Assembly (NCBI GenBank): GCA_031262295.1
Contig: JAISIA010000024.1
Location: 10,659-74,658 of the forward strand
DNA from: Bacteroidales bacterium
Lineage (GTDB): Bacteria > Bacteroidota > Bacteroidia > Bacteroidales > P3
Length of the DNA: 64,000 nt
Direction of reading: 5' to 3'
A program made the position numbers and the translations under genes. Numbering within the stretch: position 1 is the first letter of the stretch; each line of letters starts with the position of its first letter. The notes under the pieces were generated by a model. The model saw only the letters and a program-made list of their open reading frames with translations. It did not search any database and was not told the DNA's origin. Below are positions 10,034 to 63,110 of this stretch, piece by piece.

Positions 10034-10036
10034 TTA

Positions 10037-10275: not shown

Positions 10276-10310
10276 TAGGATTATGAAGAATAAATTTTAA
10301 AATTTTACAA

Positions 10311-16098: not shown

Positions 16099-16584
16099 AT
16101 GACAAATATTGGTCTTTTATCCGACACCCACAATAGCCTTCCTAAGCAGGTTTATACATTTTTTAAGGATTGTGATATAGTTCTTTGTGCAGGAGATATT
16201 GGTTCTACTGACGTCCTTGATGAATTAAGAAATTTTAAAGAAACTATTGCCGTCTATGGAAATATAGATGGATATGATATAACCTGCCAATTAAAACGTA
16301 TAGAAACATTTTTTATAGAAAAAACAAAGATTACCCTAACCCATATTGGAGGTTATCCAAATCATTATGAAAAAGGCATAAAGGAAATTCTTATAAAAGA
16401 AAAACCAAATATATTTATCTCTGGTCATAGCCACATATTAAAGGTGATTTACGATAAAGAATTAGACCTACTACATCTTAATCCTGGCGCCTGTGGCAAC
16501 TACGGATTTCACAAACAAAGAACCCTTATACGCTTTTCAATAGATGAAAAAACACCAAAAAACTTAGAAATCCTCGAATTTTAG
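16099..16584 (+). CDS. YfcE/MJ0936-type metallophosphoesterase
   Basis: 161 aa. Motifs GLLSDTH, CAGDIGS, GNIDG and SGHSH. Confidence 0.8.
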   Translation: MTNIGLLSDTHNSLPKQVYTFFKDCDIVLCAGDIGSTDVLDELRNFKETIAVYGNIDGYDITCQLKRIETFFIEKTKITLTHIGGYPNHYEKGIKEILIKEKPNIFISGHSHILKVIYDKELDLLHLNPGACGNYGFHKQRTLIRFSIDEKTPKNLEILEF

Positions 16585-17150
16585 CCACCAAGTGGCATTT
16601 AGTTTCCTGACGGAACTTATGGTTTTATTTTTATAGAGGGAGGTATGATTAAATTTTTTCTATGCTTTATTTTTTGGTAAAATAAACCTCTATTTTAACA
16701 TCATTTTTTAAAAAAAACGTCAAAATTTAACATTTTTTAACATTTCATTCAATTTTTGTCGGCAACCGACCTTTGTTTTTCCTAACGGAATTTAATATTT
16801 TCAAATTATTAATTATCAATATAATCCAAACAGATTTTAATATGTTTTCCCCGATTTTTAATTAAAAAACACAAAACCTTATTTTTTCAGAAAAAAACGA
16901 AGAAAAATTCAAATAAAACGCTGTTTTAATTTTCTAAAACGAAGAAATAATTTTCTAAAACGCTGTTTTATTTTACTAAAACGAAGTTTTATTCAGCAAT
17001 AACATACTAATAATAAAGTTATTACATCTTCAATAAAATAAAAATAAGATTTAGGAAAAATATTAGGCTTTTGCCCTAAGAAGAAACTTTGTTTAGGCAA
17101 AGGTATAAAAAAGATTTGATATATGCAAATGGGGGTTTTTGGTTTTGAAA
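16584..17150. repeat. intergenic repeat locus B: truncated long composite copy
   Basis: Hairpin gccaccaagtggc 16584-16596 overlaps the stop codon of the upstream gene. TTTAACAT boxes lie at about 16726-16747 and a hairpin unit at 16758-16790. Five 21-bp repeats have CG at 16898, 16919, 16940, 16961 and 16982. The internal promoter is at 17098-17129. Collinear with 34560-34995. Confidence 0.85.
17098..17129 (-). promoter_or_regulatory. Bacteroidetes sigma-A type promoter inside repeat copy B
   Basis: Minus strand: TTTG (complement 17126-17129), 20 nt, TACCTTTG (complement 17098-17105). It points toward the 21-bp array at 16889-16993. Confidence 0.6.
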
Positions 17151-17430
17151 TATGTATTATAGTATTTGATTTAGAAAATATTAAAGATTTTAATAAAAGA
17201 AAAATTTAACAATCTCAGAAAATAAGTCTATATATATTAATCATATTTCCAACAATATATAATTTTTGCAATCAGTTTAAAAGAATGCAAAAAACAATTT
17301 CATTTTACAAATTTCCATATATTTTTCCCGTATTGAATCTATTATACAAATAAACAAAGAAATACAAAAAAAATTTTATAATACTATTAAAATAAAATTT
17401 ATATTATTTGCTTAATATATTCCATAAAGG

Positions 17431-30639: not shown

Positions 30640-32484
30640 TTATTCTACTGTAACGCTTTTTGCTAAGTTTCTTGGTTGATCAACATCTCTTCCTTTTTCT
30701 ACTGCCACATAATAGGAGAATAATTGTAATGGAATAACTGACAAAATAGATGTTAGACATTCTTCTGTTTGTGGAATTTCAAAACACATATCTGCAATAT
30801 TCTTAATATCCTTATCCCCTTGTGTTACTATTGCTATTATTTTTCCCTTTCTACTTCTTATTTCCTCAATATTACTTAAAACCTTTTCGTATGTTTTTAA
30901 TAAAGGAGCAATAACAACACAAGGCATTTCATCATCTATAAGTGCAATTGGACCATGTTTCATCTCTGCTGCGGGGTATCCTTCGGCGTGAATGTATGAT
31001 ATTTCTTTTAATTTTAATGCTCCTTCTAATGCAACAGGGTAATTATATCCTCTTCCAAGATACATAAAGTTGCGAGCATAAGTAAATATCTTTGATATTT
31101 GTTCAATCTCTTTTGCTTTTTCTAATATGGATTCTACCTTTTCATTTATATTACAAAGCTCTTTTACTATGCTTTCGTATTTCTCATTTGTTATTGTTTT
31201 AAGTTCTTTTCCTATTGAAAGAGCCATCATAGTTAGAACAATAACCTGAGTTGTGAAAGCCTTAGTTGAGGCAACACCAATTTCTGGTCCAGCATGAGTA
31301 TATGTTCCGCTATCGGTTGCTCTTGCTATTGAAGAACCCACAACATTACATATTCCATATATAAAAGCACCTTTTTTTCTTGCAAGTTCAATAGCTGCCA
31401 AAGTATCGGCTGTTTCCCCCGATTGAGATATTGGTATTAGTATATCGCCTTGTTTAATTACTGGATTCCTATAACGAAACTCCGAAGCCACTTCAACAAC
31501 AACAGGAATACGGCAAAACTCTTCAAAAAGATATTTTCCTATTAGTCCAGCATGCCAAGATGTCCCACATGCGGTAATAATTATTTTGTTGCATTGTTTA
31601 AATTTGTCAATATGATCTATAATTCCGCTAAGTTTTATCTCTTTTTTCTCAACATTTAAACGTCCATTCATACAAAGATCAAAACTCTTTGGCTGTTCAA
31701 ATATTTCTTTTAGCATAAAATGAGGATAACCTTGCTTTTCAATATCGTTTAATTCCAACTCTATTTTTGAAATATCGTGCTCTATTTCCTCATTATTTAT
31801 GGTATTTATTAGCGGACGATTGCCTTTTTCTAAAAGAACAACTTCTTCATCATCCAAATATATTACATTATTTGTATATTCTACAATTGGTGTTGCATCA
31901 GAACCAATAAAGAAATCCCCTTCTCCAATGCCTACAATTAGGGGTGAGCCTTTGCGAGCTGCAACCAATGTGTCGTTTTTCCCTTTTTCTATTACACATA
32001 TTGCGTAGGCACCAATAACAAAATGAAGTGTGCGTTTTACAGCTTCAAACAAGGAACAATCATATTTTGTTTTTACAAACTCTATTGCTTGAACTAATAC
32101 CTCTGTATCTGTTTGGCTTTGGAATTTGTAACCATTCTTTGTTAGCATTTGTTTTATGGATAGATAGTTTTCTATAATTCCATTATGTATTAAGGCTAAA
32201 TTCTTACTTTGAGAATAGTGTGGATGAGCATTTGTGTCGTTTGGCTCTCCGTGAGTAGCCCATCGGGTATGTGCTATGCCAAGTGTTCCCGATACATCCT
32301 TATCTTTGCAATACTCTTCCAAAGAAGAGACCTTGCCCTTAGTTTTATAAACTTTCAATTCTAAGTTTTCATTCAACAAAGCACAACCTGCTGAATCATA
32401 ACCACGATATTCCAACCTTTTTAATCCTTTTATCAATATTGGGTATGCTTGTTTGTCTCCCAGATAACCAACTATTCCACACAT
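30640..32484 (-). CDS. glmS: glutamine--fructose-6-phosphate aminotransferase
   Basis: 614 aa. N-terminal MCGIVGY, SIS domains and C-terminal NLAKSVTVE. Confidence 0.95.
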   Translation of the reverse strand: MCGIVGYLGDKQAYPILIKGLKRLEYRGYDSAGCALLNENLELKVYKTKGKVSSLEEYCKDKDVSGTLGIAHTRWATHGEPNDTNAHPHYSQSKNLALIHNGIIENYLSIKQMLTKNGYKFQSQTDTEVLVQAIEFVKTKYDCSLFEAVKRTLHFVIGAYAICVIEKGKNDTLVAARKGSPLIVGIGEGDFFIGSDATPIVEYTNNVIYLDDEEVVLLEKGNRPLINTINNEEIEHDISKIELELNDIEKQGYPHFMLKEIFEQPKSFDLCMNGRLNVEKKEIKLSGIIDHIDKFKQCNKIIITACGTSWHAGLIGKYLFEEFCRIPVVVEVASEFRYRNPVIKQGDILIPISQSGETADTLAAIELARKKGAFIYGICNVVGSSIARATDSGTYTHAGPEIGVASTKAFTTQVIVLTMMALSIGKELKTITNEKYESIVKELCNINEKVESILEKAKEIEQISKIFTYARNFMYLGRGYNYPVALEGALKLKEISYIHAEGYPAAEMKHGPIALIDDEMPCVVIAPLLKTYEKVLSNIEEIRSRKGKIIAIVTQGDKDIKNIADMCFEIPQTEECLTSILSVIPLQLFSYYVAVEKGRDVDQPRNLAKSVTVE

Positions 32485-32540
32485 AAACTATTTTTTTTAT
32501 TTTTGTTATTTTAATGTTTTTAACTTCTAATTCCAATCCG

Positions 32541-32548
32541 CAAAGGTA
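32541..32548 (-). promoter_or_regulatory. -7 box upstream of glmS
   Basis: Complement reads TACCTTTG, 56 nt upstream of start 32484. Confidence 0.4.
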
Positions 32549-32645
32549 ATACAATTTATTATAAATATAGTAAAACACATATTAAACCACATTAGTTGTA
32601 GAATTAAACCAAAAATACAATTTCTTGAATTTTGGAATTTTGTTG

Positions 32646-32653
32646 TACCTTTG
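32646..32653 (+). promoter_or_regulatory. -7 box directly upstream of trpS
   Basis: TACCTTTG ends 4 nt before ATG 32658. TTTC lies 21 nt upstream. Confidence 0.45.
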
Positions 32654-32657
32654 CACA

Positions 32658-33653
32658 ATGGAAACAATTTTAAGTGGAATGCGTCCTACGGGTAATATAC
32701 ATTTAGGTAATTACTTTGGAGCATTAATAAATTTTATTAAATTACAGCAAACGCATCGTTGCTTTTTCTTTATTGCCGACTATCATTCCTTAACAACTCA
32801 TCCCAATCCAAAGGATTTACATCAAAGTGTTAAGACTATATTATCACAATATCTTGCCTGTGGCTTAGATCCTCAAAAAAGTACAATATACATTCAAAGT
32901 TCTTTGCCTGAGGTGACAGAATTATATATGTATCTTAATATGATTGCCTACTTAGGAGAGTTAGAAAGGGTGACATCTTTTAAGGATAAGGTTAGGCAAA
33001 ACCCCAATAATGTAAATGCAGGCTTACTAACCTACCCCACATTAATGGCATCAGACATCCTAATTCATAAGGCAAACTACGTCCCTGTTGGAAAAGACCA
33101 AGCACAACATTTAGAAATGACAAGAACTTTTGCACAAAGGTTCAACAAAATGTATAATGTGGAATATTTTCCCCTACCTCAGGCTTATAACTTCAAGAAT
33201 GAACTACTAAAAGTTCCGGGATTGGATGGCTCTGGTAAGATGGGCAAGAGCTTAGGTGAGGCTAATGCAATATTTCTTGTTGATTCAGATACTGCAATAG
33301 AGAAAAAAATATCAAGAGCAAAAACAGATAGTGGTCCAAAGGAAACAAATGAGAAAAAATCTGTTGAAATTGAGAATCTTTTTTCCTTAATGTCTTTGGT
33401 TTCTTCTAAGGAAACTATTGATTATTTTGAAGAAAAATATAATGATTGTTCAATTCGCTATGGAGATATGAAAAAACAATTGGCAAAGGATATGATAAGT
33501 TTCATCTCTCCAATAAGAGAAAAGATATTTGAAATACAAAATAACGACACCTATCTAAGCGATGCAATTAAGCAAGGCGAAGAAAAGGCAAGAGAAAGTG
33601 CAAGAAAAACCATTAGGGAAGTTAGAGAAATAATAGGATTTAAGTCATTTTAA
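32658..33653 (+). CDS. trpS: tryptophan--tRNA ligase
   Basis: Start trimmed to METILSGMRPTGNIHLGNY (HIGH-type motif). KMSKS equivalent KMGKS. Confidence 0.9.
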   Translation: METILSGMRPTGNIHLGNYFGALINFIKLQQTHRCFFFIADYHSLTTHPNPKDLHQSVKTILSQYLACGLDPQKSTIYIQSSLPEVTELYMYLNMIAYLGELERVTSFKDKVRQNPNNVNAGLLTYPTLMASDILIHKANYVPVGKDQAQHLEMTRTFAQRFNKMYNVEYFPLPQAYNFKNELLKVPGLDGSGKMGKSLGEANAIFLVDSDTAIEKKISRAKTDSGPKETNEKKSVEIENLFSLMSLVSSKETIDYFEEKYNDCSIRYGDMKKQLAKDMISFISPIREKIFEIQNNDTYLSDAIKQGEEKARESARKTIREVREIIGFKSF

Positions 33654-33654
33654 T

Positions 33655-34335
33655 ATGTCAAAACTTTATTTGGTTCCAACTCCAATAGGGAATTTGGAAG
33701 ATATTACTCTTCGTGCTATACGCATACTAAAAGAGGTTGATCTAATTCTTGCAGAGGATACACGCACTTCAAAGAAACTTCTAAACCATTACCAAATTAC
33801 AACCCCATTAGAGTCGTATCACCTATTCAATGAACACGAAAAAGTGGAAAGAATTGCAGAAAAAATAAGTGCAGGATATAAAGTTGCTCTTATAAGTGAT
33901 GCAGGAACGCCCGCTATTTCAGACCCCGGATACCTACTTGTTAGACAATGCGTAAAACATGATATAGTTGTGGAGACACTTCCCGGTGCAACAGCCCTTA
34001 TAGTTGCATTAGTTAATTCAGCAATACCTTGTAATAGTTTTTCTTTTGAAGGATTTCTTCCCACTAAAAAAGGGAGGAAAACCCTATTAGATAAACTAAA
34101 AACAGAAGAAAGAACTATGATATTCTACGAATCCCCTTTTAGATTAATAAAAACTCTAAAAGATTTTAGTGAATATTTTGGAAAAGATAGAAGGGCATCA
34201 GTAAGTAGGGAACTAACAAAACTATTTGAAGAAAACAAAAGAGGCACTTTGGAAGAATTAATAAACTATTTTGAAAATAAAACAATAAAAGGAGAAATAG
34301 TAATCATAGTTCAAGGGTCGGCAACCGACTTTTAA
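33655..34335 (+). CDS. rsmI: 16S rRNA (cytidine1402-2'-O)-methyltransferase
   Basis: 226 aa. Motifs LYLVPTPIGNLEDITLRA, EDTR and ISDAGTPAISDPG. The last 6 codons (SATDF*) are encoded by a hairpin repeat unit. Confidence 0.9.
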   Translation: MSKLYLVPTPIGNLEDITLRAIRILKEVDLILAEDTRTSKKLLNHYQITTPLESYHLFNEHEKVERIAEKISAGYKVALISDAGTPAISDPGYLLVRQCVKHDIVVETLPGATALIVALVNSAIPCNSFSFEGFLPTKKGRKTLLDKLKTEERTMIFYESPFRLIKTLKDFSEYFGKDRRASVSRELTKLFEENKRGTLEELINYFENKTIKGEIVIIVQGSATDF

Positions 34336-35333
34336 TTGTCCTTGCGGAAATATGGGTTTTTATAATTATATATTTATATACTTATATTTATAATTCAATA
34401 AAAAATTATTCTTGTTTAAAATTTCTAAAACAAGGATAATTTTCTATGTAAATACAATAATTACCTATCAATTCCACAAATTCAAGACCTAAAATGTTAT
34501 ATTTTCAAAAATATTTAACATTTCATACCCCATTTTTGACCCCATTTTTAACACTTTAGTAAATTTTTTCGCCAAAATTTAACATTTTTTAACATTTCAT
34601 TCAATTTTTGTCGGCAACCGACCTTTGTTTTTCCTAACGGAATTTCAGCTTTTCAAATTATTAATTATCAATATAATCCAAACAAATTTTAATATGTTTT
34701 CCCCGATTTTTAATTAAAAAACTCAAAACCTTATTTTTTCAGAAAAAAAACGAAGATTTCTCCAAATAAAACGCTGTTTTATTTTCCTAAAACGAAGAAA
34801 TAATTTTCTAAATCTTCGTTTTAATTTTCTAAAACGAAGATTTATTTAAAGATAACACACTAATAATAAGATTATTATAATGCAATCAAAAATAAAAATA
34901 AGTTGTGGGGAAATTTATATGTCTTTTGCCTTAAAAGAAACTTTGTTTGGCAAAGATACAAAAAAGATTTGATAAATGCAAACGGGAAATTTCAGTTTTG
35001 AAATTTGGAATTTAACATTTGAAGGAAAAAATGTTAAATATTTTTTGAAATTACATTTTTCATATATCAAAGCAATGGGATTCATCTCCTTGTAAAACTA
35101 ATATTATATACAAATAATGGTAATTTATATAAAGAAACAATACGGGAAAAGAGATAAACCCCCTTATTATTGGTTATTTTGTGTAATGCCCTTTGCGGAT
35201 TATCCCTACTGAATTATGACAAAATAAAGGTGGGTTTTGACTTCCGCAAGGACAATTAAATGCCTGTTGCAGGCTTGCCGACAACCAGACTTCCGTTAGG
35301 ACGACTAAATGCCACTTGGTGGCTTGCCGACAA
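34317..35333. repeat. intergenic repeat locus D: full-length long composite copy (about 1 kb, ORF-less)
   Basis: Components in order: hairpin unit 34317-34350, TTTAACATTT boxes 34514-34598, hairpin unit 34610-34645, 21-bp repeats 34741-34847, promoter 34951-34982 (minus), inverted repeat 35009-35039, and two terminal hairpin units 35239-35333. Collinear with the reverse complement of 46753-47600. Confidence 0.9.
34951..34982 (-). promoter_or_regulatory. Bacteroidetes sigma-A type promoter inside repeat copy D
   Basis: Minus strand: TTTG (complement 34979-34982), 20 nt, TATCTTTG (complement 34951-34958). It points toward the 21-bp array at 34741-34847. Confidence 0.6.
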
Positions 35334-37226: not shown

Positions 37227-37244
37227 GAAAAATCATAATAAGAC

Positions 37245-37328
37245 TACCCATATTCCGCAAGGACGAATAAAAGCCGCTTGGCGGTCCGTTAGGACAACTA
37301 AATGCTCGTTGCGGGTTCGGTTGCCGAC
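37245..37328 (+). repeat. intergenic repeat locus E: about 3 hairpin units
   Basis: Sequence tattccgcaaggacgaataaaagccgcttggcgg / tccgttaggacaactaaatgctcgttgcggg / ttcggttgccgac. It overlaps the 3' end of the minus-strand TIGR02757 gene. Confidence 0.85.
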
Positions 37329-38062
37329 TTATTTATTCCATAACCGAAGAGGGCAAAATCTCCTAAAAGGGGATCGGAAGGGAAAATGGTTTTTAGATTT
37401 TCGGTAATTTGTAAGGCTGTTTTTAAGGAAGGTTGTTTTATTGTGGTTAATTGTAAAAATAAAGCCTCCTTATGAACATGAGTATCTAATGGAATAATCA
37501 AATCCTTTGGCTCTAAGATATTCCATAAACCAAAATCTACAATACCATCGTTTCTTATCATCCATCTTAAAAACATACATAAACGTTTGCAAGCAGAAGT
37601 GATATTATTAGGAATACCTTTCACATCTTTAAACATCGTTATTATTATTTTTAGAATAACAATAGAATTATTTCCCTCTTTGTTTTCTTTTTGTTTTTCT
37701 TCAATTGCTTTTTCCAAAGAGGAATATTTTTCATATATATTATATAATGTAAGGCAAAGATTGTAATAGTCATTAAAGGTATAAAAACGATATAGACAAG
37801 AGGGATTATTCTTATATTTTACAAATCCTTTTTCTTTTATAAATTGGTAGGGAGAATTGTTATACAAGGCAAATTCCTTATGAATAATTTCTAAGGTTTT
37901 TATTATTTGTTTCCTATTTCCATAAGAGAGCCAAGAGGAGATAAAGGCAGAAATTTCAATATCTTTTTTTTCTTTATAAAGATGTGGAAATTGTATTGGG
38001 TCATTAAGAATGAAGTCTTTATTATTATATCTTTTGGAATATTCTATAATTAGGTCTTTCAT
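37298..38062 (-). CDS. TIGR02757 (DUF2400) family protein
   Basis: 254 aa. N-terminus with DPIQFPH...EISAFISSWLSYGNRKQI. The last roughly 10 codons (SATEPATSI*) are encoded by hairpin repeat units. Confidence 0.5.
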   Translation of the reverse strand: MKDLIIEYSKRYNNKDFILNDPIQFPHLYKEKKDIEISAFISSWLSYGNRKQIIKTLEIIHKEFALYNNSPYQFIKEKGFVKYKNNPSCLYRFYTFNDYYNLCLTLYNIYEKYSSLEKAIEEKQKENKEGNNSIVILKIIITMFKDVKGIPNNITSACKRLCMFLRWMIRNDGIVDFGLWNILEPKDLIIPLDTHVHKEALFLQLTTIKQPSLKTALQITENLKTIFPSDPLLGDFALFGYGINKSATEPATSI

Positions 38063-38097
38063 TAAAATATTTGTAATTTATCTTCTATTATTTAATT

Positions 38098-40944
38098 TTA
38101 TTTTTTTATTGCCTGATAAATTATATCGTGGATATTTGTTCTAATATTTTCCTTTGCAAGACGATTTTCCTTTGCCGAAGGATACACTCTATTGGATAGG
38201 AAAATTAAAGACACTTTTTCCTTTTCATCTATCCAGAAAAATGTTCCTGTAAAACCTGTGTGACCATAACTTTTTTGAGAAGAATATTGTGAAGAAGGAG
38301 AATTATTATTTTTAGGATTCATTACGGGTTTATCAAATCCCAAAACCCTACGATTATTCTTAAAATATCTTGTATTGAATGTGTTTATTGTACTTTGGCT
38401 TATATAACGTTTTCCATTATAAGCACCATTATTAATTAGCATCTTTAATATTATTGCCAAATCATCGCAAGAAGAAAACAAGCCTGCGTGTCCTGCAACT
38501 CCATCCATAATATATGCAGTAGGGTCATGAACTTTTCCTAATATTAATTCATTTCTAAAATAGTCATCTCTTTCTGTTGGAGCGATGTTTTCTATGTTTT
38601 CTTCATCATTATCCAAAGGATTAAAACAAGTATTTTTTAATCCCAAAGGCTTATAGAAGTTTTCTTCTACATATTCATTCAATGGCATAGAAGATAATCT
38701 TTCAATTAAGTCGCCCAAAAGAATAAATCCTAAATCGGAATAAACATAGTTTTTTGTTTTATTTAACTTACTCTTAGCAATAGCTTTTAATATATCTTTC
38801 TTGTCTTTTATCTTTTCGTCATTATAAAAAGGTAGTGATGCCTTTAATCCTGAATTATGAGCCAAAACTTCTCTTATTGTTATTTTTCTTTTGTTTGTGA
38901 ATCTTAAATAAGGAAGGTATTTTGAAAGTCTATCATCCAAGTTATATTTTTTTTCATCGTATAGCCTCATCATTGCAAGGTTGGTTGCAAGTGCTTTTGT
39001 TATTGAAGCCAAATCATATATTGTATTGTCATCAACTCTTTTTATTGAATCGTAAGTAAAAAAGCCATATTGTTGTTTATATACAATATTTGTATCATAG
39101 AGAACTATTATTTGACATCCTGGATAAGCCTTTTTTATTATTCCATAATTGGCAATAGAATCTATTTTTTTTATATTTTCAAGTGAAATCTTCCCTTTGG
39201 AATATTTAACCCAATGCATAATATGTTCATCGTATGATAGAGCATAGTTTAAAGGCATGGTATCTGAGGCTGTTATTGGCAACATTCCTTTTGGATTAAT
39301 TTGTCCAAATATACTTTTTGCTAATGCTATTTCAAGGAATTTATCCTTTTGGTATCCAATTAATATTGTCTTTATGTTTTTTAGTGAGTCAATAAATTTT
39401 AAACTATATGGATTTGCAAAAAGAGCAAGGGATGTATTATTATATCTTTCTTGTATATTATAAAGGTCTTTTAATGCTTTATTGCTTATTCCATAATTAT
39501 GTTTTTCTGTTCTTTTTATATTTCCTGCAAGTATTGTAATAATATGAGTAAAGTTATTTAATGTATCTAAAACCAAACTATCCTTATCTGATATATTATA
39601 TGTTGTAGTTGTTTTATTATACATTTTAACTATTGAATCAAAGTCAGAAGAAAGGGCATTATCTCCCAGATGTACAATAGCTATTGAACAATTTGTAGTA
39701 TCGTATATTGGAAAATTATTTTCTTTGTTTTTAACTAAGGTTATGATTTCTTTGGAAAAAAGTTCATTTATTTTATTAGCTTCATCTATTATTTCTTCAC
39801 TTGGTAATTGTAGTTCTATATTATTTAACGTATCAAATAAACCCAAATCATATTTTGCTTGTAGGACTTTTCTACACTTTTCATCTATTTCAATTGGGCT
39901 TATTCTTCCCTCTTCTATTGCTTTTATTATTGCCTCAACAGCCTTATATTCATTTTTAGGCATAAGAAGTATATCAACTCCTGCCATAAGAGCTTTTACT
40001 TCTGCTTCTCCATCTTTATAGGTATTTGTAACACCTTTCATATTTAAGGCATCAGTTACAACTAATCCTTCAAAACAAAGTTCATTTTTTAAATAATCAG
40101 TAATCGCTTCATCGCTTAAAGAGGCAGGAGTTAGGGAATCTTTTATTAGAGTAGGGATATTAATATGTCCAACCATAACCATCTTTACTCCTTTATCTAT
40201 TGCATAACGGAAGGGGTAGGAATCTATGCTATCAATAAATTCTTTGCTATGATTAATTATTGGTAAGGAATAATGAGAATCGGTTTGTGTGTCTCCGTGA
40301 CCGGGAAAATGCTTAACCGAAGGTAGGACTTTACCATCTTGTAATCCCTTTGCATAAGCCCAACCTAAATACGCAACCTTATCTTTGTCTTCTCCAAAGG
40401 AACGAGAACCAATTATTGGATTTTTATAATTTAGATTAATATCTACACTTGGAGCAAAGTTTATATTTAATCCTAAACTTCGCAATTGCTTAGCCAAGTT
40501 TAAGCCCATTTTATAGACTAAATTACTATCGGAAGAAGCTCCTAAGGAGAGTTGATGATAAAAAGAAAAACCATCCTCCATTCTCATTTCTAATCCCCAT
40601 TCAGCATCTATTCCGAAAAACAAAGGGACTTTTGCTAAGGAAGAATATTTTTCATTTAGTTTTATAAGTGTTTTTTCATTTCCCTTAAAAAAACAAACGC
40701 CTCCCACTTTTAGACTATCTATCATAGTAGAAATTTTATCTACATATAATGAATCATCCTTTGTGTCGGAGGCTATAATTATTAGTTGTCCTATCTTTTC
40801 TCTTAGAGAAAGACAAGATAATATGCTATAAACTATACTATCTCTTTTGTGAAAATTGTCTTTAAATTGTGTCTCTTGTGAAAATAAATTGCCAAAGATT
40901 AGAAATATGGCTGTAAGAAATAGTATATTTGATTTAATTTTCAT
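38098..40944 (-). CDS. fusion protein: GH3 beta-N-acetylhexosaminidase domain + serine beta-lactamase/PBP-like hydrolase domain
   Basis: Start trimmed to MKIKSNILF (complement 40942-40944). GH3 motif KHFPGHGDT. C-terminal half has SxxK (ASITKAL) and YSDLGF motifs. Confidence 0.8.
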   Translation of the reverse strand: MKIKSNILFLTAIFLIFGNLFSQETQFKDNFHKRDSIVYSILSCLSLREKIGQLIIIASDTKDDSLYVDKISTMIDSLKVGGVCFFKGNEKTLIKLNEKYSSLAKVPLFFGIDAEWGLEMRMEDGFSFYHQLSLGASSDSNLVYKMGLNLAKQLRSLGLNINFAPSVDINLNYKNPIIGSRSFGEDKDKVAYLGWAYAKGLQDGKVLPSVKHFPGHGDTQTDSHYSLPIINHSKEFIDSIDSYPFRYAIDKGVKMVMVGHINIPTLIKDSLTPASLSDEAITDYLKNELCFEGLVVTDALNMKGVTNTYKDGEAEVKALMAGVDILLMPKNEYKAVEAIIKAIEEGRISPIEIDEKCRKVLQAKYDLGLFDTLNNIELQLPSEEIIDEANKINELFSKEIITLVKNKENNFPIYDTTNCSIAIVHLGDNALSSDFDSIVKMYNKTTTTYNISDKDSLVLDTLNNFTHIITILAGNIKRTEKHNYGISNKALKDLYNIQERYNNTSLALFANPYSLKFIDSLKNIKTILIGYQKDKFLEIALAKSIFGQINPKGMLPITASDTMPLNYALSYDEHIMHWVKYSKGKISLENIKKIDSIANYGIIKKAYPGCQIIVLYDTNIVYKQQYGFFTYDSIKRVDDNTIYDLASITKALATNLAMMRLYDEKKYNLDDRLSKYLPYLRFTNKRKITIREVLAHNSGLKASLPFYNDEKIKDKKDILKAIAKSKLNKTKNYVYSDLGFILLGDLIERLSSMPLNEYVEENFYKPLGLKNTCFNPLDNDEENIENIAPTERDDYFRNELILGKVHDPTAYIMDGVAGHAGLFSSCDDLAIILKMLINNGAYNGKRYISQSTINTFNTRYFKNNRRVLGFDKPVMNPKNNNSPSSQYSSQKSYGHTGFTGTFFWIDEKEKVSLIFLSNRVYPSAKENRLAKENIRTNIHDIIYQAIKK

Positions 40945-41021
40945 AGCACAAAAATAAAAAAAAGTCGTCAAGTAAAACTTAACGACCTTTATTTTTTCTT
41001 AATAATAAGTTTCTTTTCTTA

Positions 41022-41474
41022 TTAATTTAAGCATTTTTTCACATTAAACAATGCATCTTTTACTCTCTTTTCGTAAGTAGGGTTATTCAAACATTGTTTT
41101 ACTGCATTTTGTTTAGCATCACTTTGATTTTTTAAATCAACATAATCTTTAAAGCCTTTTGCTCCATTACCTTTTTGAGCATAAGCATTACTTAATTTAT
41201 AAGCATAAGCTTCAAAGTCTGCAACTATTTTTTCGCAAGGATCAACTTCTTGTTTAGCCTTAGTTGTTTCTTGCTTTGCAGCAGGAGTTGTAGCCTTAGT
41301 TGTAGTTGTTGTTTTTGGAGCTTCAGCTTTTGGCTCTTCAACAGGAACTTCTTCCACTGCTACTACTTCTTCAATTTCTGTTGCAGTTGGAGTTTCAACA
41401 ACTGCTTCTTTTTTTGCACAAGCAGCAACAAATGCTACCATTGCAACTGCTAATAATAGGTTTCTTACCTTCAT
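41022..41474 (-). CDS. lipoprotein with low-complexity E/V/T/K linker
   Basis: 150 aa. Lipobox VAACAK. A TACCTTTG box lies on the minus strand at 41519-41526. Confidence 0.55.
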   Translation of the reverse strand: MKVRNLLLAVAMVAFVAACAKKEAVVETPTATEIEEVVAVEEVPVEEPKAEAPKTTTTTKATTPAAKQETTKAKQEVDPCEKIVADFEAYAYKLSNAYAQKGNGAKGFKDYVDLKNQSDAKQNAVKQCLNNPTYEKRVKDALFNVKKCLN

Positions 41475-41715
41475 AAATTTTTGTTTTTTTATTGTTATAT
41501 TAATCTACTTTAACGCTGCAAAGGTATAAATAAAATTACACCTAAAAGGTAATAAATATGTATTTTTATTTTATTTTTCACAATACAATATCTGTTTATC
41601 AAATAATTAAATAGATGAAAAACAAATACAATATAACTTTATATCTTTTTGCAGAAAGAAAAAACTTGCTTATAGAGGTTTTGAAATATAATTTATATTT
41701 TTTCGTTTTAATTTG

Positions 41716-41723
41716 TATCTTTG
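41716..41723 (+). promoter_or_regulatory. -7 box upstream of the M6 protease gene
   Basis: TATCTTTG, 85 nt before ATG 41809. Confidence 0.4.
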
Positions 41724-41808
41724 CCGACTTATTTTGCCTATTTAAGGTGAATACTTATGGTGAATTTAATTTATAAATAATTTTTTAAACATTAATAAAA
41801 TTGATAAT

Positions 41809-44736
41809 ATGACAAAAAAATTGTCCCTAATAGTAATGCTGCTTTTCTTTGCAGTTAATGTTTTTGCTGTACCTGCAAATCCAAAAGCTTTTACAATAAA
41901 ACAAAAAGATGGAAGAAGTTTAACAATAAAACTTAGAGGTGATGAAAAAGTAAATTGGGGAGAGACATTAGATAAATACACTATTATACACAATAATGAA
42001 GGAGTATGGGTTTATGCTATTTTAGATAAGGAAGGAGACTTAATCCCTTCAAGTTTTATTGCAGTAAATGAAAAAGAGAGAACAAAACAAGAAAAAGAAT
42101 TTCTTAGAACCCTACCATTTAATTTAAGATACTCTTCAAAGCAGATAAAAGAAAAAAGAGAGGCTTTTACAAAAAGTAGTTTTTCTCATAAGGCAACAAC
42201 AATAGGAACAGTTCATCAAGTTGTTATATTAGTTGCTTTTTCAAATAAGAGCTTTACTTTCCCTGCAAGTAATTTTGATAATATGTGCAATGAAATTGGT
42301 TATAGCTATAATGGAGCAACAGGAAGTGTTAAGGACTATTATAGGGATAACTCAAATGGACTAATGAATATGGAGATTGATGTTTTGGGACCTTACACCC
42401 TATCTAATACTTCTGCTTATTATGCAGACTATAGTCACATGTATCAATTTGTATCCGAAGCCTTAACTCTTGCAGATAATGATATTGACTTTACAGATTA
42501 TTTAAATGGTAATAATAATGTAGGTAATGTTCATTTTGTATTTGCAGGACAAGCACAATCAACAACAGGAGACCCAACGGAAATATGGCCTCACGAATCC
42601 TATGTTCCAAATTCAATAGTAAAAGACGGAGTTCATTTTTCAACATATTCTTGTTCTTCTGAAAAGAAAACAGCAACAACATTAGCAAGTATAGGTACTA
42701 TGTGTCATGAGATGGGACATTCATTAGGACTTATGGACCTTTATGACACCGACTATGAAGAAAATGGTCAAGCAAACGACCCTTCGGTTTGGGATGTTAT
42801 GGCAGGAGGAAACTATAATAATGATGGAAATACTCCTCCTTATTTGAATGGTTGGGAAAGAAGTATATTAAATTGGACAGACAATGTTGTTTTAAGTCAA
42901 GAGAGTTTAGTTTATGCTCCTGCTATGGGAGATTCTCTTGTTTCCTATCAAGTAGATTTGGACAATAATGAATACTATCTAATAGAAAATAGGACAAGAA
43001 AAGGATGGGATAGTTTCCTTCCGGGTGATGGATTATTAATCTTTCATGCAGATAAAAGACAATTGGAAGGAACAACCGACTTCTACTACAATCAAATTAA
43101 TGCTAACCCCAATAATATGGGTTTTTTCATAGAAGTATCAACAGGAGTACCTTCTCAAACAACAACAGCATACGCTCCATTTGTTGGAGCAAGTAATCAA
43201 GATTATTTTACAAGCAATTCAACCCCTTCAACACATAAAAAAGACGGGACAATAGTTAATAAACCTCTTACTCACATGCATTATACTAATGACTCTGTCA
43301 TCTCTTTTCGTTACCTTTCTTCACTTGCACAAGTAAAAACTATGGGCATCGTTGCAGGAACAATACGTGGAACAACAGCTGATGTAAATGGATTAATTGC
43401 ATACGAAGGTACAGGAAATATTATTGAAAAGGGAATGTATTGGGATTTGGATGCAAGCCTTGTTGGTGTTAATTCAAACAAAAACATATCTACTTCAAAT
43501 AACGATTCAATTAAAACAACCCTCACTAATCTTCCAACAAGTACAACCATACATTATAGAGCATACGCAATAACAGAAACCGACACATCTTTGGCAAGTC
43601 AAATTATGTCTTTTACAACAACCGATGGACTCCCTACTGTTTTAACTTCAAATGTTAATAGTATAGGAAATAATCAAGCAACATTTAATGGTTCATTAGT
43701 AAATTTAGGTGATGGTAATTTTATTGAAAAAGGATTTGTCTATTCCAATGATCCTTCTTCAATGCCAACAATAGAAGATAATAAATTAGTTGTTCCCTAT
43801 TCAACTCAAACAGGAGCTTTTTCTGCAACTGCAACATCCCTAAACGAACAAACCACTTATGCTGTTAGAGCTTTTGCAACAAATAACTTCGGAACAAAAT
43901 ACGGAACAAGAAAAATATTCACAACAACATTCCCAGAGATAGAAAACAATACCATATCTTCAAATCAAACATTTTGTCAAGGAGGAACACCTGAACAATT
44001 AGTGGGACAAGCACCAAGCGGAGCATACGGCAATTTTACTTATAAATGGGAACAAAAGGTTAGAAATAATGCTTGGGAAGAAGCAACCCAAACAAACAAC
44101 ACTAAGGACTATGAACCAGAATATCTAACAGATTCTACTTTCTATCGTAGAATAGTTTTTTCTCAAAACATAAAAGATACATCCAATGTAATACTAATAA
44201 ATATACAAAACTCTTGGGGAGGTTATGTTTCTATGCCAAAAGATACAATATTTACAGGTTCTTCAACAGGAACAATAAGACTTTTATCCTATGTTGGAAC
44301 AATAAAAAATTGGGAAAGGAAAAAAGATGAAGGAGAATGGGAAAACATTTCTCGCACAACAAGCTCCTTTTCCCAAACCTTAGAAGAAGAAGGTCTATAT
44401 TCTTATAGAGTAAAAATACAAGCGGGAACCTGTCCTGAGGCTTATTCACAAGAAGGAACAATATATGCAGCAGTTAATTCATTAGAAAAAGTAATAGATG
44501 ATGAAAATATAAAAATATATCCAATTCCAACAAAAGATGTTCTTAATATAAGTTCTTCTTATAAATACCCAACACAAATAAGTATAATAAATTCCTTAGG
44601 TATTATCATAAAGGAAGAAACAACAAGAATTGATAATAAGGCTTTGGATGTATCAAATTTAAAAAGCGGAGTATATACTCTTATAATAAATTTGAATGAT
44701 AAACCTTTCAAAAAAACATTTGTTATAAATAAATAA
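41809..44736 (+). CDS. M6-family (immune inhibitor A-like) metalloprotease with T9SS sorting domain
   Basis: 975 aa with a signal peptide. Zinc motif HEMGHSLGLMDLYD. C-terminal IKIYPIPTKDVLNISS...KKTFVINK is a T9SS sorting domain. Confidence 0.8.
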   Translation: MTKKLSLIVMLLFFAVNVFAVPANPKAFTIKQKDGRSLTIKLRGDEKVNWGETLDKYTIIHNNEGVWVYAILDKEGDLIPSSFIAVNEKERTKQEKEFLRTLPFNLRYSSKQIKEKREAFTKSSFSHKATTIGTVHQVVILVAFSNKSFTFPASNFDNMCNEIGYSYNGATGSVKDYYRDNSNGLMNMEIDVLGPYTLSNTSAYYADYSHMYQFVSEALTLADNDIDFTDYLNGNNNVGNVHFVFAGQAQSTTGDPTEIWPHESYVPNSIVKDGVHFSTYSCSSEKKTATTLASIGTMCHEMGHSLGLMDLYDTDYEENGQANDPSVWDVMAGGNYNNDGNTPPYLNGWERSILNWTDNVVLSQESLVYAPAMGDSLVSYQVDLDNNEYYLIENRTRKGWDSFLPGDGLLIFHADKRQLEGTTDFYYNQINANPNNMGFFIEVSTGVPSQTTTAYAPFVGASNQDYFTSNSTPSTHKKDGTIVNKPLTHMHYTNDSVISFRYLSSLAQVKTMGIVAGTIRGTTADVNGLIAYEGTGNIIEKGMYWDLDASLVGVNSNKNISTSNNDSIKTTLTNLPTSTTIHYRAYAITETDTSLASQIMSFTTTDGLPTVLTSNVNSIGNNQATFNGSLVNLGDGNFIEKGFVYSNDPSSMPTIEDNKLVVPYSTQTGAFSATATSLNEQTTYAVRAFATNNFGTKYGTRKIFTTTFPEIENNTISSNQTFCQGGTPEQLVGQAPSGAYGNFTYKWEQKVRNNAWEEATQTNNTKDYEPEYLTDSTFYRRIVFSQNIKDTSNVILINIQNSWGGYVSMPKDTIFTGSSTGTIRLLSYVGTIKNWERKKDEGEWENISRTTSSFSQTLEEEGLYSYRVKIQAGTCPEAYSQEGTIYAAVNSLEKVIDDENIKIYPIPTKDVLNISSSYKYPTQISIINSLGIIIKEETTRIDNKALDVSNLKSGVYTLIINLNDKPFKKTFVINK

Positions 44737-44757
44737 GAATAAAAAAAACTTTATAAT

Positions 44758-45141
44758 ATGAACAAGGTAATAAATACTGATAAGGCACCAAAAGCAATAG
44801 GACCTTATAGCCAAGCAATATTGGCAGAAAATGGAATGTTATTTATTTCAGGACAAATCCCTGTATGTCCTCAAACAGGAAAAGTTCCAGAAGGAATCAA
44901 AGAACAAACAACACAGGTTTTTGAAAACATAAAAGCAATATTAGAAGAGGCTGGTTATAGCTTTAAAGATGTTGTAAAAACAACTTGTTTATTAAATTCT
45001 ATGGACGACTTTGCAGCTATGAACGAAGTGTATGCAAAGTACTATAATGAATTTCTTCCTGCAAGAGCTGCTTATAGCGTTGAAAAACTTCCTATGGGAG
45101 TATTAGTTGAAATAGAAACTATTGCTTATAAGGCTAAATAA
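44758..45141 (+). CDS. ridA: RidA family reactive-intermediate deaminase
   Basis: 127 aa. Motifs [17 protein letters not shown] and [20 protein letters not shown]. Confidence 0.9.
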
Positions 45142-45156
45142 AAAAAATAGAATCTA

Positions 45157-45753
45157 TTGGAAAAGGTAGGACTATTTTTTGGCAGCTTTAATCCAATCCA
45201 TAAAGGACATACTTTTTTAGCAAAACAAATATTAGAGAAAGCAAACCTCAACAAGGTATGGTTTGTTGTTTCTCCACAAAATCCTTTAAAGGAAAACACT
45301 GAACTTTTGGACGAAAAGACAAGACTGCTATTAGTTCGTTTAGCAATAAAGAATGAAAAAAACTTTGTTGCCTCTGATGTGGAATTTCATTTAAATAAGC
45401 CCTCCTACACAATAAACACCTTAGACTTCCTAAAAGAAAAATATCCCAATAAATTATTCTCAATAATAATGGGAATGGATAATTTTGATAATTTTCATCT
45501 GTGGAAAAACTATCAAGAAATATTGAACAATTATACAATATATATATATCCAAGAAAAGAACAAGACAATGAAGAAAACAATAATAAAGAAAATTTAATT
45601 GGGAAAAATATAGTCTTTTTTTCTTTTCCATTACTAAACATTTCCTCTACCATTATAAGAGAGAAATTACGTAATAAAGAAAGTATAGAAAACTATGTTG
45701 AAAAGGAAGTAAAAGAGAAAATAGAAAAAAATAATCTTTATTGTAACTCTTAA
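45157..45753 (+). CDS. nadD: nicotinate-nucleotide adenylyltransferase
   Basis: 198 aa with a TTG start (45157-45159). Motifs GSFNPIHKGH and ISSTIIRE. Confidence 0.85.
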   Translation: MEKVGLFFGSFNPIHKGHTFLAKQILEKANLNKVWFVVSPQNPLKENTELLDEKTRLLLVRLAIKNEKNFVASDVEFHLNKPSYTINTLDFLKEKYPNKLFSIIMGMDNFDNFHLWKNYQEILNNYTIYIYPRKEQDNEENNNKENLIGKNIVFFSFPLLNISSTIIREKLRNKESIENYVEKEVKEKIEKNNLYCNS

Positions 45754-45812
45754 AAATATTTTGCGTAATAGTGTGCAGTTTTTTTAATAATTAAAAAAGG
45801 TTAATTATATAG

Positions 45813-46676
45813 ATGAGACAATTAAAAATTATCAAGCAGCTTACCAATAGAGAAATTACCTCTTTGGATAAATACCTTCAAGAGATAGGTCGTTTGGAAA
45901 TGATTTCTCCCGAAGAAGAAGTTATTTTAGCACAAAAAATAAAACAAGGAGACCAAGCAGCATTAGATCGTTTGGCAACAGCAAACCTAAGATTTGTTGT
46001 ATCTGTTGCAAAGCAATATCAAAATCAAGGTATGTCCCTTCCTGATTTAATCAATGAAGGTAACTTGGGATTAATAAAAGCAGCACAACGTTTTGATGAA
46101 ACAAGAGGATTTAAGTTCATCTCCTATGCAGTTTGGTGGATACGTCAATCAATTCTTCAGGCTTTAGCAGAACAAAGTCGTATAGTAAGACTACCCTTAA
46201 ATAAGATAGGCTCACTAAATAAGATAAATAAAACTTATGCTAAGTTGGAACAGAAGTTTGAAAGACAACCCAACCCTGAGGAAGTTGCTTTTGAATTGAA
46301 TCTTTCCGAAAGCGAAGTGAGAGAAGCTGTACGCCATAGCGGAAAACATCTTTCTATGGATGCTCCTTTGGCAACAGATGAAGATAATACCATGTATGAC
46401 TTTATGCGTAGTGAAGAAAACACAACACCTGAGGCTGAACTTATGTACGAAAGTCTAAGAATGGAGATAAATAGAGCCATTTCTACCTTAACACAAAAAG
46501 AAGCTGACATACTAAAAATGTTCTTCGGATTGGAAGGTTATCCTCCTATGACTTTGGATGAAATAGGAGAACAATTTGATTTAACCCGAGAAAGAGTACG
46601 TCAAATTAAAGAAAAAGCAATACGCAGATTAAAACACACATCAAGAAGTAATATACTCAAAACTTATTTGGGATAA
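45813..46676 (+). CDS. rpoD: primary RNA polymerase sigma factor (Bacteroidetes sigma-A type)
   Basis: 287 aa. Regions 2-4 present ([41 protein letters not shown]). Confidence 0.9.
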
Positions 46677-46712
46677 CTTATTTAAGATAAAGGTTAAATA
46701 TTAATAATTTTT

Positions 46713-46751
46713 AGCGACTAAGAACAAAAAAACGTTCTTAGTCGCTTTTTT
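46713..46751 (+). terminator. rho-independent terminator of rpoD
   Basis: 13-bp stem agcgactaagaac / gttcttagtcgct, 8-nt loop, then TTTTTT. The repeat copy F starts 2 nt later. Confidence 0.8.
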
Positions 46752-46752
46752 A

Positions 46753-47690
46753 GTCGGCAACCGACCTTTAATTTTCCTAACGGAAGTCTGGTTGTCAGCA
46801 ATTGACCTTTATTTTGTCTAATTCAATAGGGATAATCCGCAAAGAAAATTACATAAAATAACCAATAGCAAAGGGATTTATCCCCTTGTAAGCATTGTTT
46901 CTTTATATAAATTACCAATATTTGCGTATAATATTATTTTTACAATGGGATGAACCCCATTGTTTTGATATATGAAAAATGTAATTTCAAAAAATATTTA
47001 ACATTTTTCCCTTCAAATGTTAAATGCCGAAACTCCCAATTTGGAAAATGCCATTTGCATATATCAAATCTTTTTTGTACCTTTGCCAAAACAAAGTTTC
47101 TTTTAAGGGCAAGAAAGCTCTAATATTTCCAAATTTCATTTTCCTTTATATTTACAAAATAATCACTTTATTATTAGTGTGTTATCTTTAAATAAATCTT
47201 CGTTTTAGAAAATTAAAACGCTGTTTTAGAAAATTATTTCTTCGTTTTAGCAAATTAAAACAGCGTTTTATTTTGGAAAAATAAGGTTTTTGTTTTTTTA
47301 ATTAAAAATCTGAAAAATTATATTGAAATTTACTTATATTATATTGAGGATTACTTGATTACTAATTTTAGAAAATTTTAACAAATTTTGAAGCTCTAAA
47401 ATTGAGAAATTGAGTGAAATGTTAAAAATTCGTCAAATTTTGTGTTTTTTATGAGGAAGAAATGTTAAAATTTGGTGATTTTAGGGTTGGAAATGTTAAA
47501 ATCTTTTGAAAAAATAATATTTTAGATCTTTAATTTGTGGAGTTGATTGATAATTATTGTATTTACATAAAAATTATCCTTGTTTGTCGGCAACCGACCT
47601 TTATTCAGCTATTGGATTGAAAAAAATATAAGAAATTAAAACAAAGTTTTAGAAAAATAAAACAGCAACTTATTTTTTTATCTTGCTATT
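46753..47690. repeat. intergenic repeat locus F: full-length long composite copy, inverted relative to D
   Basis: Components in order: hairpin units 46753-46806, inverted repeat 46996-47025, promoter 47054-47085 (plus), four 21-bp repeats 47193-47276, GAAATGTTAAAA boxes at 47416, 47459 and 47489, hairpin 47586-47598, and degenerate 21-mers at about 47633-47680. Confidence 0.9.
47054..47085 (+). promoter_or_regulatory. Bacteroidetes sigma-A type promoter inside repeat copy F
   Basis: TTTG (47054-47057), 20-nt spacer, TACCTTTG (47078-47085). This matches the -33 TTTG / -7 TAnnTTTG consensus. It points toward the 21-bp array. Confidence 0.6.
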
Positions 47691-62228: not shown

Positions 62229-62328
62229 CAAAAAAAATTAAACAATAATTAATAAGTTTTTATCGTTAGATATTTGGTGTAATGAAAGAGTTTTTGAGAA
62301 AGGAAAAGAAAAAAATTGTAAAAAAAAT

Positions 62329-62360: not shown

Positions 62361-62389
62361 CCCCTGAAAACCTATAAAATTAAAATATT

Positions 62390-63085: not shown

Positions 63086-63110
63086 TTTATTTTATAATTT
63101 CATAAGCGAA

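Follow-up and report, generated by a model that had tools for sequence, protein, structure and literature searches.

A family of modular intergenic repeats in a 64-kb stretch of an uncultured Bacteroidales genome

In a stretch of 64,000 nucleotides from a Bacteroidales bacterium (contig JAISIA010000024.1 of assembly GCA_031262295.1; hereafter, the window), an intergenic segment of about 1 kb at positions 34317–35333 recurs, in whole or in part, at six other loci. This repetition is real and well above chance, and the sequence family is new although its general kind is known. On balance, these loci probably constitute a family of lineage-specific, non-coding, non-autonomous and modular intergenic repeats of an uncultured, low-GC member of the Bacteroidales, resembling either repetitive extragenic palindromic (REP) sequences and bacterial interspersed mosaic elements (BIME) or the BrickBuilt elements. 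This interpretation is carried by the anatomy and repetition of the loci, by compensatory changes in the stem of a double-hairpin unit, by the placement and orientation of that unit on stop codons, by an exact match to the Bacteroidota promoter consensus, by restriction of the family to one lineage and by the occurrence, in a sister lineage, of homologous 21-mers at sites that are not orthologous.

Long Copies and Their Modular Composition

The window has a G+C content of about 30% and genes of an ordinary chromosomal kind, among them those for PorV, IspF, RuvB, agmatine deiminase, GlmS, TrpS, RsmI, RpoD and MutS, a polysaccharide operon and a cargo protein of the type IX secretion system (T9SS). 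Three long copies were designated A (16584–17191), B (34317–35333) and C (46753–47605). The first-pass annotation of this DNA had proposed that B is collinear with the reverse complement of C, and formal alignment by MAFFT and blastn upheld this, with 77.5% identity over 823 nt between B 34428–35231 and C 47585–46805 (E = 0). It had also placed the left part of B alongside 16680–17150; here the collinearity was confirmed (B 34570–35044 vs. A 16718–17191, 86% identity over 478 nt, E = 1e-155), but the limits were not, as A matches from 16584/16718 to 17191. In line with these alignments, a repeat finder returned two pairs of inverted arms between B and C (35004–35216/46819–47031, 213 nt, 87%; 34743–34915/47122–47294, 173 nt, 82%) and one direct repeat between A and B (16718–16897/34570–34749, 180 nt, 97%). 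B and C are very unevenly conserved; stretches of 53 nt and 45 nt are free of differences amid the overall identity, which points to constraint or gene conversion acting on those pieces.

A and B lie one way and C is inverted, so that the description of three modular copies in both orientations, each devoid of an open reading frame (ORF) of at least 60 aa, was borne out: the longest ORFs have 56–57 aa in B and C and fewer than 40 aa in A. A hidden small protein was rejected as a candidate, since the ORFs common to B and C (31, 39/49 and 56/57 aa) have frames that are broken by indels or cross the promoter and had no match in a collection of 15 billion proteins. The earlier statement that the window carries no transposase, integrase or recombinase was likewise confirmed, none of these domains being detected with Pfam and NCBIfam in essentially all window ORFs. 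The genes for proteins of 402 and 159 aa to the right of B were considered as a mobility enzyme and dismissed, because both encode signal-peptide proteins without a family match.

Four further, shorter loci had been listed, giving seven in the window; all four are real (10036–10290, 27684–28010, 37239–37320 and 63172–63520; named d10, d27, d37 and d63, respectively, in Table 1), and the seven loci together amount to about 3.5 kb, or about 5% of the window. Each of the blocks assigned to the long copies by the annotation, among them boxes, 21-bp arrays, promoter, 11-nt inverted repeat and double-hairpin units, could be located. With regard to the last of these, the units had been regarded as terminal; they do occur at the ends, but also internally in A and B (16758 and 34610).

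A long copy corresponds to a short composite plus about 600 bp of extra sequence. Approximately 370 bp of this extra sequence sits between array and linker and comprises GATAACACACTAATAATAA, the TTTGCC/GGCAAA repeat, the promoter, the palindrome and a conserved segment of about 200 nt. A left part adds 90 nt of conserved sequence, the boxes and an internal unit that is confined to A and B. At its left end, B has a short composite in inverted orientation. The box motif TTTAACATTT occurs 13 times in the window against 1.95 expected, and 12 of the 13 occurrences are inside A, B or C. A wedge-model calculation with parameters after Bolshoy et al. 1991 placed the box regions of all three copies near the top for curvature when the 64 kb was divided into windows of 126 bp; the 21-mer arrays came out as only moderately curved (2nd to 24th percentile). 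B and C both have the 11-nt inverted repeat, which in A is degenerate.

Double-Hairpin Units at Gene Ends

The hairpin unit has a length of 41–49 nt, and 15 full units, in addition to degenerate ones, were aligned. Its layout consists of stem-loop 1, in which a 5-bp stem bears an invariant CAA loop, a T-rich linker (A/C/T)TTTA(A/G)TT, an invariant TCC-NNNN-GGA hairpin and a GTCTGGT tail. Pairing holds in 93% of cells for helix 1, and in 95.8% for both helices together, across the 15 full units. Compensatory double changes were found in three of the five pairs of stem 1 (UA/CG 8:7; GC/AU/CG/UA; GC/CG), with not a single one-sided change, and the covariation score of the unit was reached by none of 500 shuffles and collapsed in slid controls. 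A covariance model built on the unit yielded 14 matches of 47–68 bits in the window, whereas 1.49 Mb from other Bacteroidota gave one chance match, located within a gene, and 64 kb of the closest relatives gave none.

All units are located outside ORFs or at their very ends. At five gene ends the unit lies 2 nt past the stop codon (10036), abuts it (16584 and 28010) or contains it (rsmI and DUF2400), and a sixth cluster follows rpoD at a distance of 76 nt, behind the terminator of rpoD itself. With respect to the adjoining gene, the order is hairpin and then T-run at all six gene ends, and several units satisfy a simple terminator rule. Tandem units are arranged head-to-tail (10036/10077, 35239/35286 and 63383/63424/63472). 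The conserved RsmI sequence ends in ...IVIIVQG and the tail SATDF-stop is supplied by the unit; the unit-encoded C-termini are thus ...SATDF-stop in RsmI and ...EPATSI-stop in the DUF2400 protein.

The two genes that enter a unit, rsmI (34313–34335) and the DUF2400 gene (37298–37320), are unrelated and do so in the same frame, with their TAA or TAG stop codon in the unit linker. Along the window, the orientation of the units flips at about 35 kb, six of seven being on the plus strand to the left and seven of eight on the minus strand to the right.

21-bp Arrays and Short Composite Loci

According to Tandem Repeats Finder (TRF), the 21-mers follow the consensus CTAAAACGAAGAAATAATTTT alternating with CTAAAAC-NNN-GTTTTAATTTT, giving a super-period of 42 bp. 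CTAAAAC and TAATTT are invariant across the 21-mers, and the arrays are phased with a period of 21 bp and have no spacers. In the short composites the order of the modules is fixed, from array through the linker TTGAATTATAAAC to reverse units. A derivation of the 21-mers from hairpin units lacking stem 1 was discarded, as local alignment was no better than with shuffles in four of five tests.

Homologous 21-mer arrays (e.g., CTGAATCTTCGTTTTAATTTA, E down to 3e-11) were detected in two loci of a sister lineage (L100 and L101) whose RpoD is 90% identical. There, one array lies between the L-PSP and cytidylyltransferase genes, where the spacer in the source genome measures 15 bp, and another fills the gap between two convergent stop codons exactly; in L100 the arrays homologous to those of the window are at 9108–9231 and 1566–1692. 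The 21-mer module is older than the rest of the family. Other intergenic arrays of 21–22 bp with different cores were seen in related Bacteroidales, at L099 10944–10995, right after rpoD, and at L051 19326–19565, the latter comprising 11 copies of a hairpin-containing 21-mer.

Promoter, Inverted Repeats and Folding

An exact TTTG-N20-TAnnTTTG promoter sequence is present in all three long copies, as had been claimed, but its strand is opposite to that of the element as first written, being minus in A and B and plus in C. The promoter consequently reads into the 21-mers and towards the boxes, away from the 200-nt segment. Similarly, the repeat described earlier as a ttgcc-N18-ggcaa hairpin exists; its GGCAAA arm, however, overlaps the −7 box and the repeat covers the expected start site, which fits a candidate operator better than an RNA hairpin.

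The 35-nt promoter core of C was found, in identical form, on two contigs from JGI metagenomes, in front of an ATPase gene and with nothing else in common. These matches (L082 3698–3732 and L083 1622–1656) come from unrelated, higher-GC metagenomic Bacteroidota. Since an identical core fronts an ordinary ATPase gene, it represents a generic strong Bacteroidota promoter and is no signature of the element; the two matches also illustrate how stereotyped strong promoters are in this phylum. The promoter of C faces the polysaccharide operon at a distance of 800 bp, with a terminator-like hairpin and the operon's own TAccTTTG box intervening. The 200-nt segment folds below shuffles, with z = −4.7 for the minus strand of B and z = −3.8 and −4.05 for the two strands of C.

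Relatives, Gene Order and Assembly

The closest sampled relatives have 90–92% identity in RpoD, 76% in RsmI and 70% in agmatine deiminase. Three collinear gene blocks are kept in them, DUF4831-WG-PAD-CN_hydrolase-EamA-Metallophos_2, M23-DUF4301-GlmS-TrpS-RsmI and M6-L-PSP-cytidylyltransferase-RpoD, with far-end spacers of 24–160 bp; beyond the blocks, the relatives differ in their neighbors (CdaA and DUF6089; Transgly and RuvC; PfkB). In the source genome, a repeat locus (d10, A, d27, B or C) is found at five out of six block edges but at none of the 12 internal junctions.

A comparison with related Bacteroidota by blastn, suggested in the annotation as a check, returned homologues of the 21-mer module only, and in these searches and in scans of related Bacteroidota loci the rest of the family was absent. 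A 31-base pattern of the element had no match in a collection of 185k species genomes that does not include the source genome, and three scans of IMG/VR gave a single chance match inside a giant-virus gene.

Two Logan contigs of sample SRR14710920 are 100% identical to parts of the window (L001 to 27853–34344 and L084 to 37257–46777) and end inside repeat modules. Next to d27, an AAA_21 (AbiEii/OLD-type) ATPase gene and a 152-aa partner occupy 25846–27613; in relatives the M23 peptidase gene directly abuts the transglycosylase gene without this pair, which looks like a small defense-type insert. The 5' leader of the TonB_C gene is repeated (62312–62388 vs. 63566–63642, 82%), as is its terminator hairpin (63110–63155 vs. 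63663–63708, 89%); the copy lies 1.25 kb downstream with no gene in between, and might represent either a duplicate without a gene or a locus for a small RNA. Finally, 21416–25675 encodes a 1419-aa fibronectin-III-rich T9SS cargo protein with internal DNA repeats (22208–22318 vs. 24479–24589, and others).

Table 1. Modules of the long copies A, B and C and of the four short loci (positions in the window).
Feature	Position	Strand	Remark
B, left hairpin unit	34317–34360	+	terminator-like orientation; 60.1 bits; rsmI ORF enters and stops in unit linker (...GSATDF-stop)
B, AT-rich linker (reverse complement TTGAATTATAAAT) and two degenerate 21-mers	34361–34440	-	inverted copy of short composite
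B, conserved left segment	34441–34530	+	86% identity to C 47484–47573
B, TTTAACATTT boxes at 34514, 34578 and 34588	34494–34600	+	strongly curved DNA predicted
B, internal hairpin unit	34610–34653	+	57.8 bits; also in A, not in C
B, spacer of ~90–110 bp (ttcaaattattaattatcaatataatcc ... gatttttaattaaaaaa)	34654–34744	+	from alignment
B, array of five phased 21-mers, CTAAAACGAAGAAATAATTTT alternating with CTAAAAC-NNN-GTTTTAATTTT	34745–34850	+	TRF
B, 53-nt stretch identical to C (last 21-mer and TTTAAAGATAACACACTAATAATAA)	34817–34869	+	longest perfect run
B, inverted repeat TTTTGCC-N18-GGCAAAG over −7 box and expected start site	34924–34955	.	candidate operator
B, promoter TTTG-N20-TAtcTTTG	34951–34982	-	Bacteroidota consensus; leftward into 21-mer array
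B, 11-nt inverted repeat ATTTAACATTT-N8-AAATGTTAAAT	35010–35039	.	arms 35010–35020/35029–35039; center ~80 nt upstream of expected start
B, conserved ~200-nt segment	35040–35205	.	87% to C; 45-nt perfect run 35027–35071; folds below shuffles
B, linker homologue (CTGAATTATGACAAAATAAAGG) before terminal units	35206–35238	+	direct reading
B, two tandem hairpin units	35239–35333	-	reverse; stem variants GCCTG/CAGGC and GCCAC/GTGGC
C, full-length inverted copy	46753–47605	-	bounded by direct 17-nt AAGGTCGGTTGCCGAC
C, hairpin units	46753–46813		
C, conserved segment	46819–47031		
C, inverted repeat	46996–47025		
C, promoter	47054–47085	+	
C, array	47190–47294		
C, boxes	47417, 47460, 47491		
C, hairpin	47586–47598		
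A, copy without right third	16584–17191	+	unit 16584–16628 abuts stop of ORF 16099–16584
A, boxes	16726–16745		
A, internal hairpin unit	16758–16801		
A, array	16879–17004		
A, promoter	17098–17129	-	
d10, two hairpin units (forward on +), linker TTGAATTATAAAC, six 21-mers	10036–10290	-	units 2 nt past stop of ORF 9596–10033
d27, one TTTAACATTT box, five 21-mers (27813–27917), hairpin unit	27684–28010	+	unit flush with stop of M23 peptidase gene
d37, one hairpin unit and a second, degenerate unit	37239–37320	-	DUF2400 ORF (37298–38062, minus) enters second unit and stops there
d63, five 21-mers, linker, three to four reverse hairpin units including an 85-bp tandem duplication	63172–63520	+	

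Interpretation and Alternatives

Three traits of the family are unusual: covarying double hairpins that sit on stop codons, a portable consensus promoter directed into a phased array, and a near-perfect link with changes in gene order. From these and the remaining features we infer roles in termination, transcription and protein binding, as well as mobility. A hairpin unit at a gene end would serve the upstream gene as an RNA 3'-end or terminator element, or possibly act as a single-strand DNA hairpin. The 21-bp arrays, with five to six repeats spaced by two helical turns, are most likely a protein-binding module occupied on one face or a structural DNA module. The promoter of the long copies would transcribe into the array and produce a non-coding or read-out transcript, and these copies would further add an operator-like inverted repeat at the −7 box, a palindrome of 11 nt some 80 nt upstream, curved boxes and the 200-nt segment. 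Spread may have taken place module by module, with duplication brought about by recombination between hairpin units or by an enzyme encoded elsewhere that mobilizes copies in trans; the copies, once spread, might then act as recombination substrates that mark rearrangement junctions.

Several observations weigh against this interpretation. The ends of the long copies are inconsistent, with inverted units bounding B, direct 17-nt repeats bounding C and no right end in A, and direct reading of the flanks of A, B and C revealed no target-site duplications at any copy. As the ends of B and C differ, the right third of A is missing and target-site duplications are absent, a 1-kb copy is better described as a mosaic than as a transposon with fixed termini; the initial view of one discrete element of about 1 kb was given up for the same reasons and because the modules also occur alone and in other combinations. 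With 5 bp and about −8 to −11 kcal/mol in each unit, the hairpins are weak; both strands fold nearly equally, the summed energies of the units being −200 kcal/mol forward vs. −186 kcal/mol reverse, so that a terminator function can only be proposed. An asymmetry between the RNA strands of the units via G·U pairs was rejected, since this difference is not decisive. In the long copies, the two-sequence consensus of the 200-nt segment (B and C) holds one compensatory pair only, in a long-range stem, and in the three-copy alignment the promoter-proximal transcript has no covariation support, its alifold covariation term being unfavorable, on which ground a conserved fold of that transcript was rejected. 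One synteny break, the sixth block edge at 41475–41808 to the left of the M6 peptidase gene, has no repeat. Since both short-read contigs tested end inside repeats, mis-joins in a metagenome-assembled genome (MAG) could have created some of the breakpoints. Further, the copy counts and the negative results for transposases refer to one 64-kb window of the genome.

Alternatively, A, B and C might be paralogous non-coding RNA genes, encoding either a small or long RNA started at the promoter or a structured RNA of ~200 nt, with the boxes and palindromes as regulatory sites and the units and 21-mers as mere neighbors. We hold this to be unlikely. A strong consensus promoter without an ORF downstream in all three copies, the conservation of the first ~25 transcribed nt, the 53-nt perfect run further downstream and an 11-nt palindrome at about −80, a typical activator position, would all suit such genes, as would the folding of the 200-nt segment below shuffles and the compensatory change in it, one U-A to C-G pair in a 15-bp long-range stem. 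However, no Rfam family matched even at permissive E-values, the covariation term for the promoter-proximal transcript is unfavorable, C folds equally well on either strand, the promoter is directed away from the segment with the best fold, the 200-nt segment is missing entirely from A and no clear terminator lies past the promoter. Somewhat less probable again is that the double-hairpin units are ends recognized by a single-strand-DNA enzyme (HUH/Y1-type or other) encoded elsewhere, the ~1 kb copies then being ORF-less cargo mobilized in trans, similar to REPIN or PATE elements. With a promoter of their own, a 21-mer array that binds protein and a conserved segment of RNA or DNA, such copies would form part of a system in Bacteroidales that moves a regulatory or RNA cassette and reshapes gene order, and the apparent flip in unit orientation at the skew minimum would reflect targeting of the lagging strand.

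We give still less credence to arrays and boxes that are kept for chromosome architecture, as binding sites of a DNA-organizing or replication protein (iteron-like, centromere-like or nucleoid), possibly near the origin. The strict 21-bp phasing at two helical turns and the CTAAAAC core, invariant in either orientation, agree with this; so do the order of boxes or curved AT-rich DNA, iterons and a palindrome over the promoter, which resembles iteron-type origins, the high curvature of the box regions in all three copies, the cumulative GC-skew minimum and gene-strand switch at ~22–42 kb and the flip of the units at ~35 kb. Yet the window has neither a Rep gene nor a DnaA-box cluster, a single origin is implausible with three copies present, the skew for the most part tracks the coding strand and shifts only weakly at codon position 3, the arrays themselves are only moderately curved, and the promoter reads into the iterons. 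A phase-variable system, in which the promoter core would be inverted between the inverted ATTTAACATTT(TTT) sequences that flank ~430 bp by a recombinase encoded elsewhere, seems very unlikely. Invertons are defined as promoters flanked by inverted repeats, many of which are not invertible (PMC11602134). B complies with the definition through 14-nt arms ATTTAACATTTTTT at 34577–34590 (+) and 35026–35039 (−) on either side of the promoter, C has equivalent boxes at 46997 (+) and 47417, 47460 and 47491 (−), and the polysaccharide-synthesis operon downstream of C and the lipoprotein pair downstream of B are typical targets of phase variation in Bacteroidales. Nevertheless, the window encodes no invertase, all three copies share one internal state, the boxes also occur in direct tandem, and in C the terminator-like hairpin (47586–47598) and the promoter of the operon itself come before the first gene. 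Least credible of all are decayed insertion sequences, prophage remnants or metagenome-assembly artefacts at repeats. Short-read contigs of the same sample do end inside repeats, and the 180 nt shared by A and B at 97% could allow mis-joins; but no leftover similarity to transposases or phages was found, the protein collection contains none of the small ORFs, the covariation of the stem and the uneven conservation argue for constraint, and the copies differ by 14–23% with indels, which marks them as distinct loci and not collapsed reads.

If the family does consist of modular intergenic repeats, about 5% of a housekeeping region would be made up of home-grown non-coding modules that sit on stop codons, provide two genes with their final codons and stop, bring along a ready promoter and coincide with nearly every change in gene order relative to the relatives. 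The region would then provide a natural case of REP- or MITE-like repeats (MITE, miniature inverted-repeat transposable element) arising and spreading without a visible transposase, of repeats rewiring termination and transcription, and of repeat-driven rearrangement in Bacteroidales, where intergenic minisatellites of 21–23 nt and 41 nt seem to be recurrent. In practical terms, such repeats fragment short-read assemblies and can yield chimeric MAG contigs.

Comparison with Known Systems

The Rfam search that the first-pass annotation had called for confirmed that A, B and C match no known RNA family: only two tRNAs in the window reached the gathering score, and matches to the copies at permissive E-values stayed far below it. 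Distant blastn gave no match to phages or plasmids either, and a known RNA family, a phage origin and a plasmid origin were rejected accordingly. The arrays do not correspond to CRISPR, as their 21-bp period has no spacers and the window proteins contain no cas domains. No transposase ORF lies between the ends of A, B or C, as it would in an insertion sequence. With MITEs the copies share small size and the lack of such an ORF, their ends being inverted in B, direct (17 nt) in C and, on the right, missing in A.

The arrays resemble the iteron-type plasmid origins of pSC101, R6K and P1 in having four to six direct repeats phased at ~21–22 bp beside DNA that is AT-rich or curved, with a palindrome that overlaps a promoter. 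They differ from these origins in that there is no rep gene, there are no DnaA boxes, multiple chromosomal copies exist and the promoter is directed into the repeats. A chromosomal oriC in the window is likewise not favored, because DnaA boxes form no cluster there and the skew is for the most part that of the coding strand.

BOX elements of Streptococcus pneumoniae and Correia elements of Neisseria measure 100–300 bp, the latter with 26-bp terminal inverted repeats and a TA duplication. The family described here shares with them a modular A-B(n)-C build with a variable number of middle modules, the absence of ORFs, promoter or terminator activity on neighboring genes, here as a proposed function, and a mobilizing enzyme that may act in trans. 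It is, however, much longer and has no sequence relation to them.

Likeness to REP and BIME elements (PMC3733652) extends to short GC-rich stem-loops in AT-rich DNA, an extragenic position just downstream of ORFs or between convergent genes, a few units that reach into ORF ends, mosaics with other motifs and a stem kept by compensatory change. REP elements carry a conserved unpaired GTAG or CGTC tag at the stem end (PMC3733652), whereas the bases before stem 1 vary here (TT, TA, GG, AA) and GTAG occurs in the d63 copies only. Moreover, the unit clusters are head-to-tail and not alternating, the 5-bp stem with its invariant CAA loop is joined to a second invariant TCC-NNNN-GGA hairpin, and no gene for a REP-associated tyrosine transposase (RAYT, Y1) is present in the 64-kb window.

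The BrickBuilt (23-nt) and PgRS/MITE464 (41-nt) MITEs of Porphyromonas gingivalis are ORF-less intergenic elements of up to 991 nt, built from a leader, tandem repeats and a tail; their promoters are bidirectional, partial copies are numerous and the host range is limited (PMC4596501). In contrast to BrickBuilt, with which it was compared by description only, the present family has covarying double-hairpin ends, short arrays (five to six units) and no target-site duplications. The IS5-type terminal repeats of BrickBuilt, GAGACCTTTGCA and TGCAAAGGTCTC, are absent from all repeat loci, GAGACCTTTGCA having three matches in the window at up to two mismatches (3.84 expected), none of them in a repeat locus; the family is therefore an analogue of BrickBuilt/PgRS and not a member. 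As such it belongs to the same order, Bacteroidales, and is likewise ORF-less, strictly intergenic, up to ~1 kb long and limited to a species or genus. It shows the same passage from a non-repetitive leader through a spacerless tandem array of ~21–23 nt to a tail, bears promoters, includes partial versions (array only, or with leader or tail missing) and coexists with a second repeat class of ~41 nt. The architecture had been considered unlike any described before; this is true of the sequence family, which is new, while its kind has precedents in BrickBuilt, PgRS, REP/BIME and BOX.

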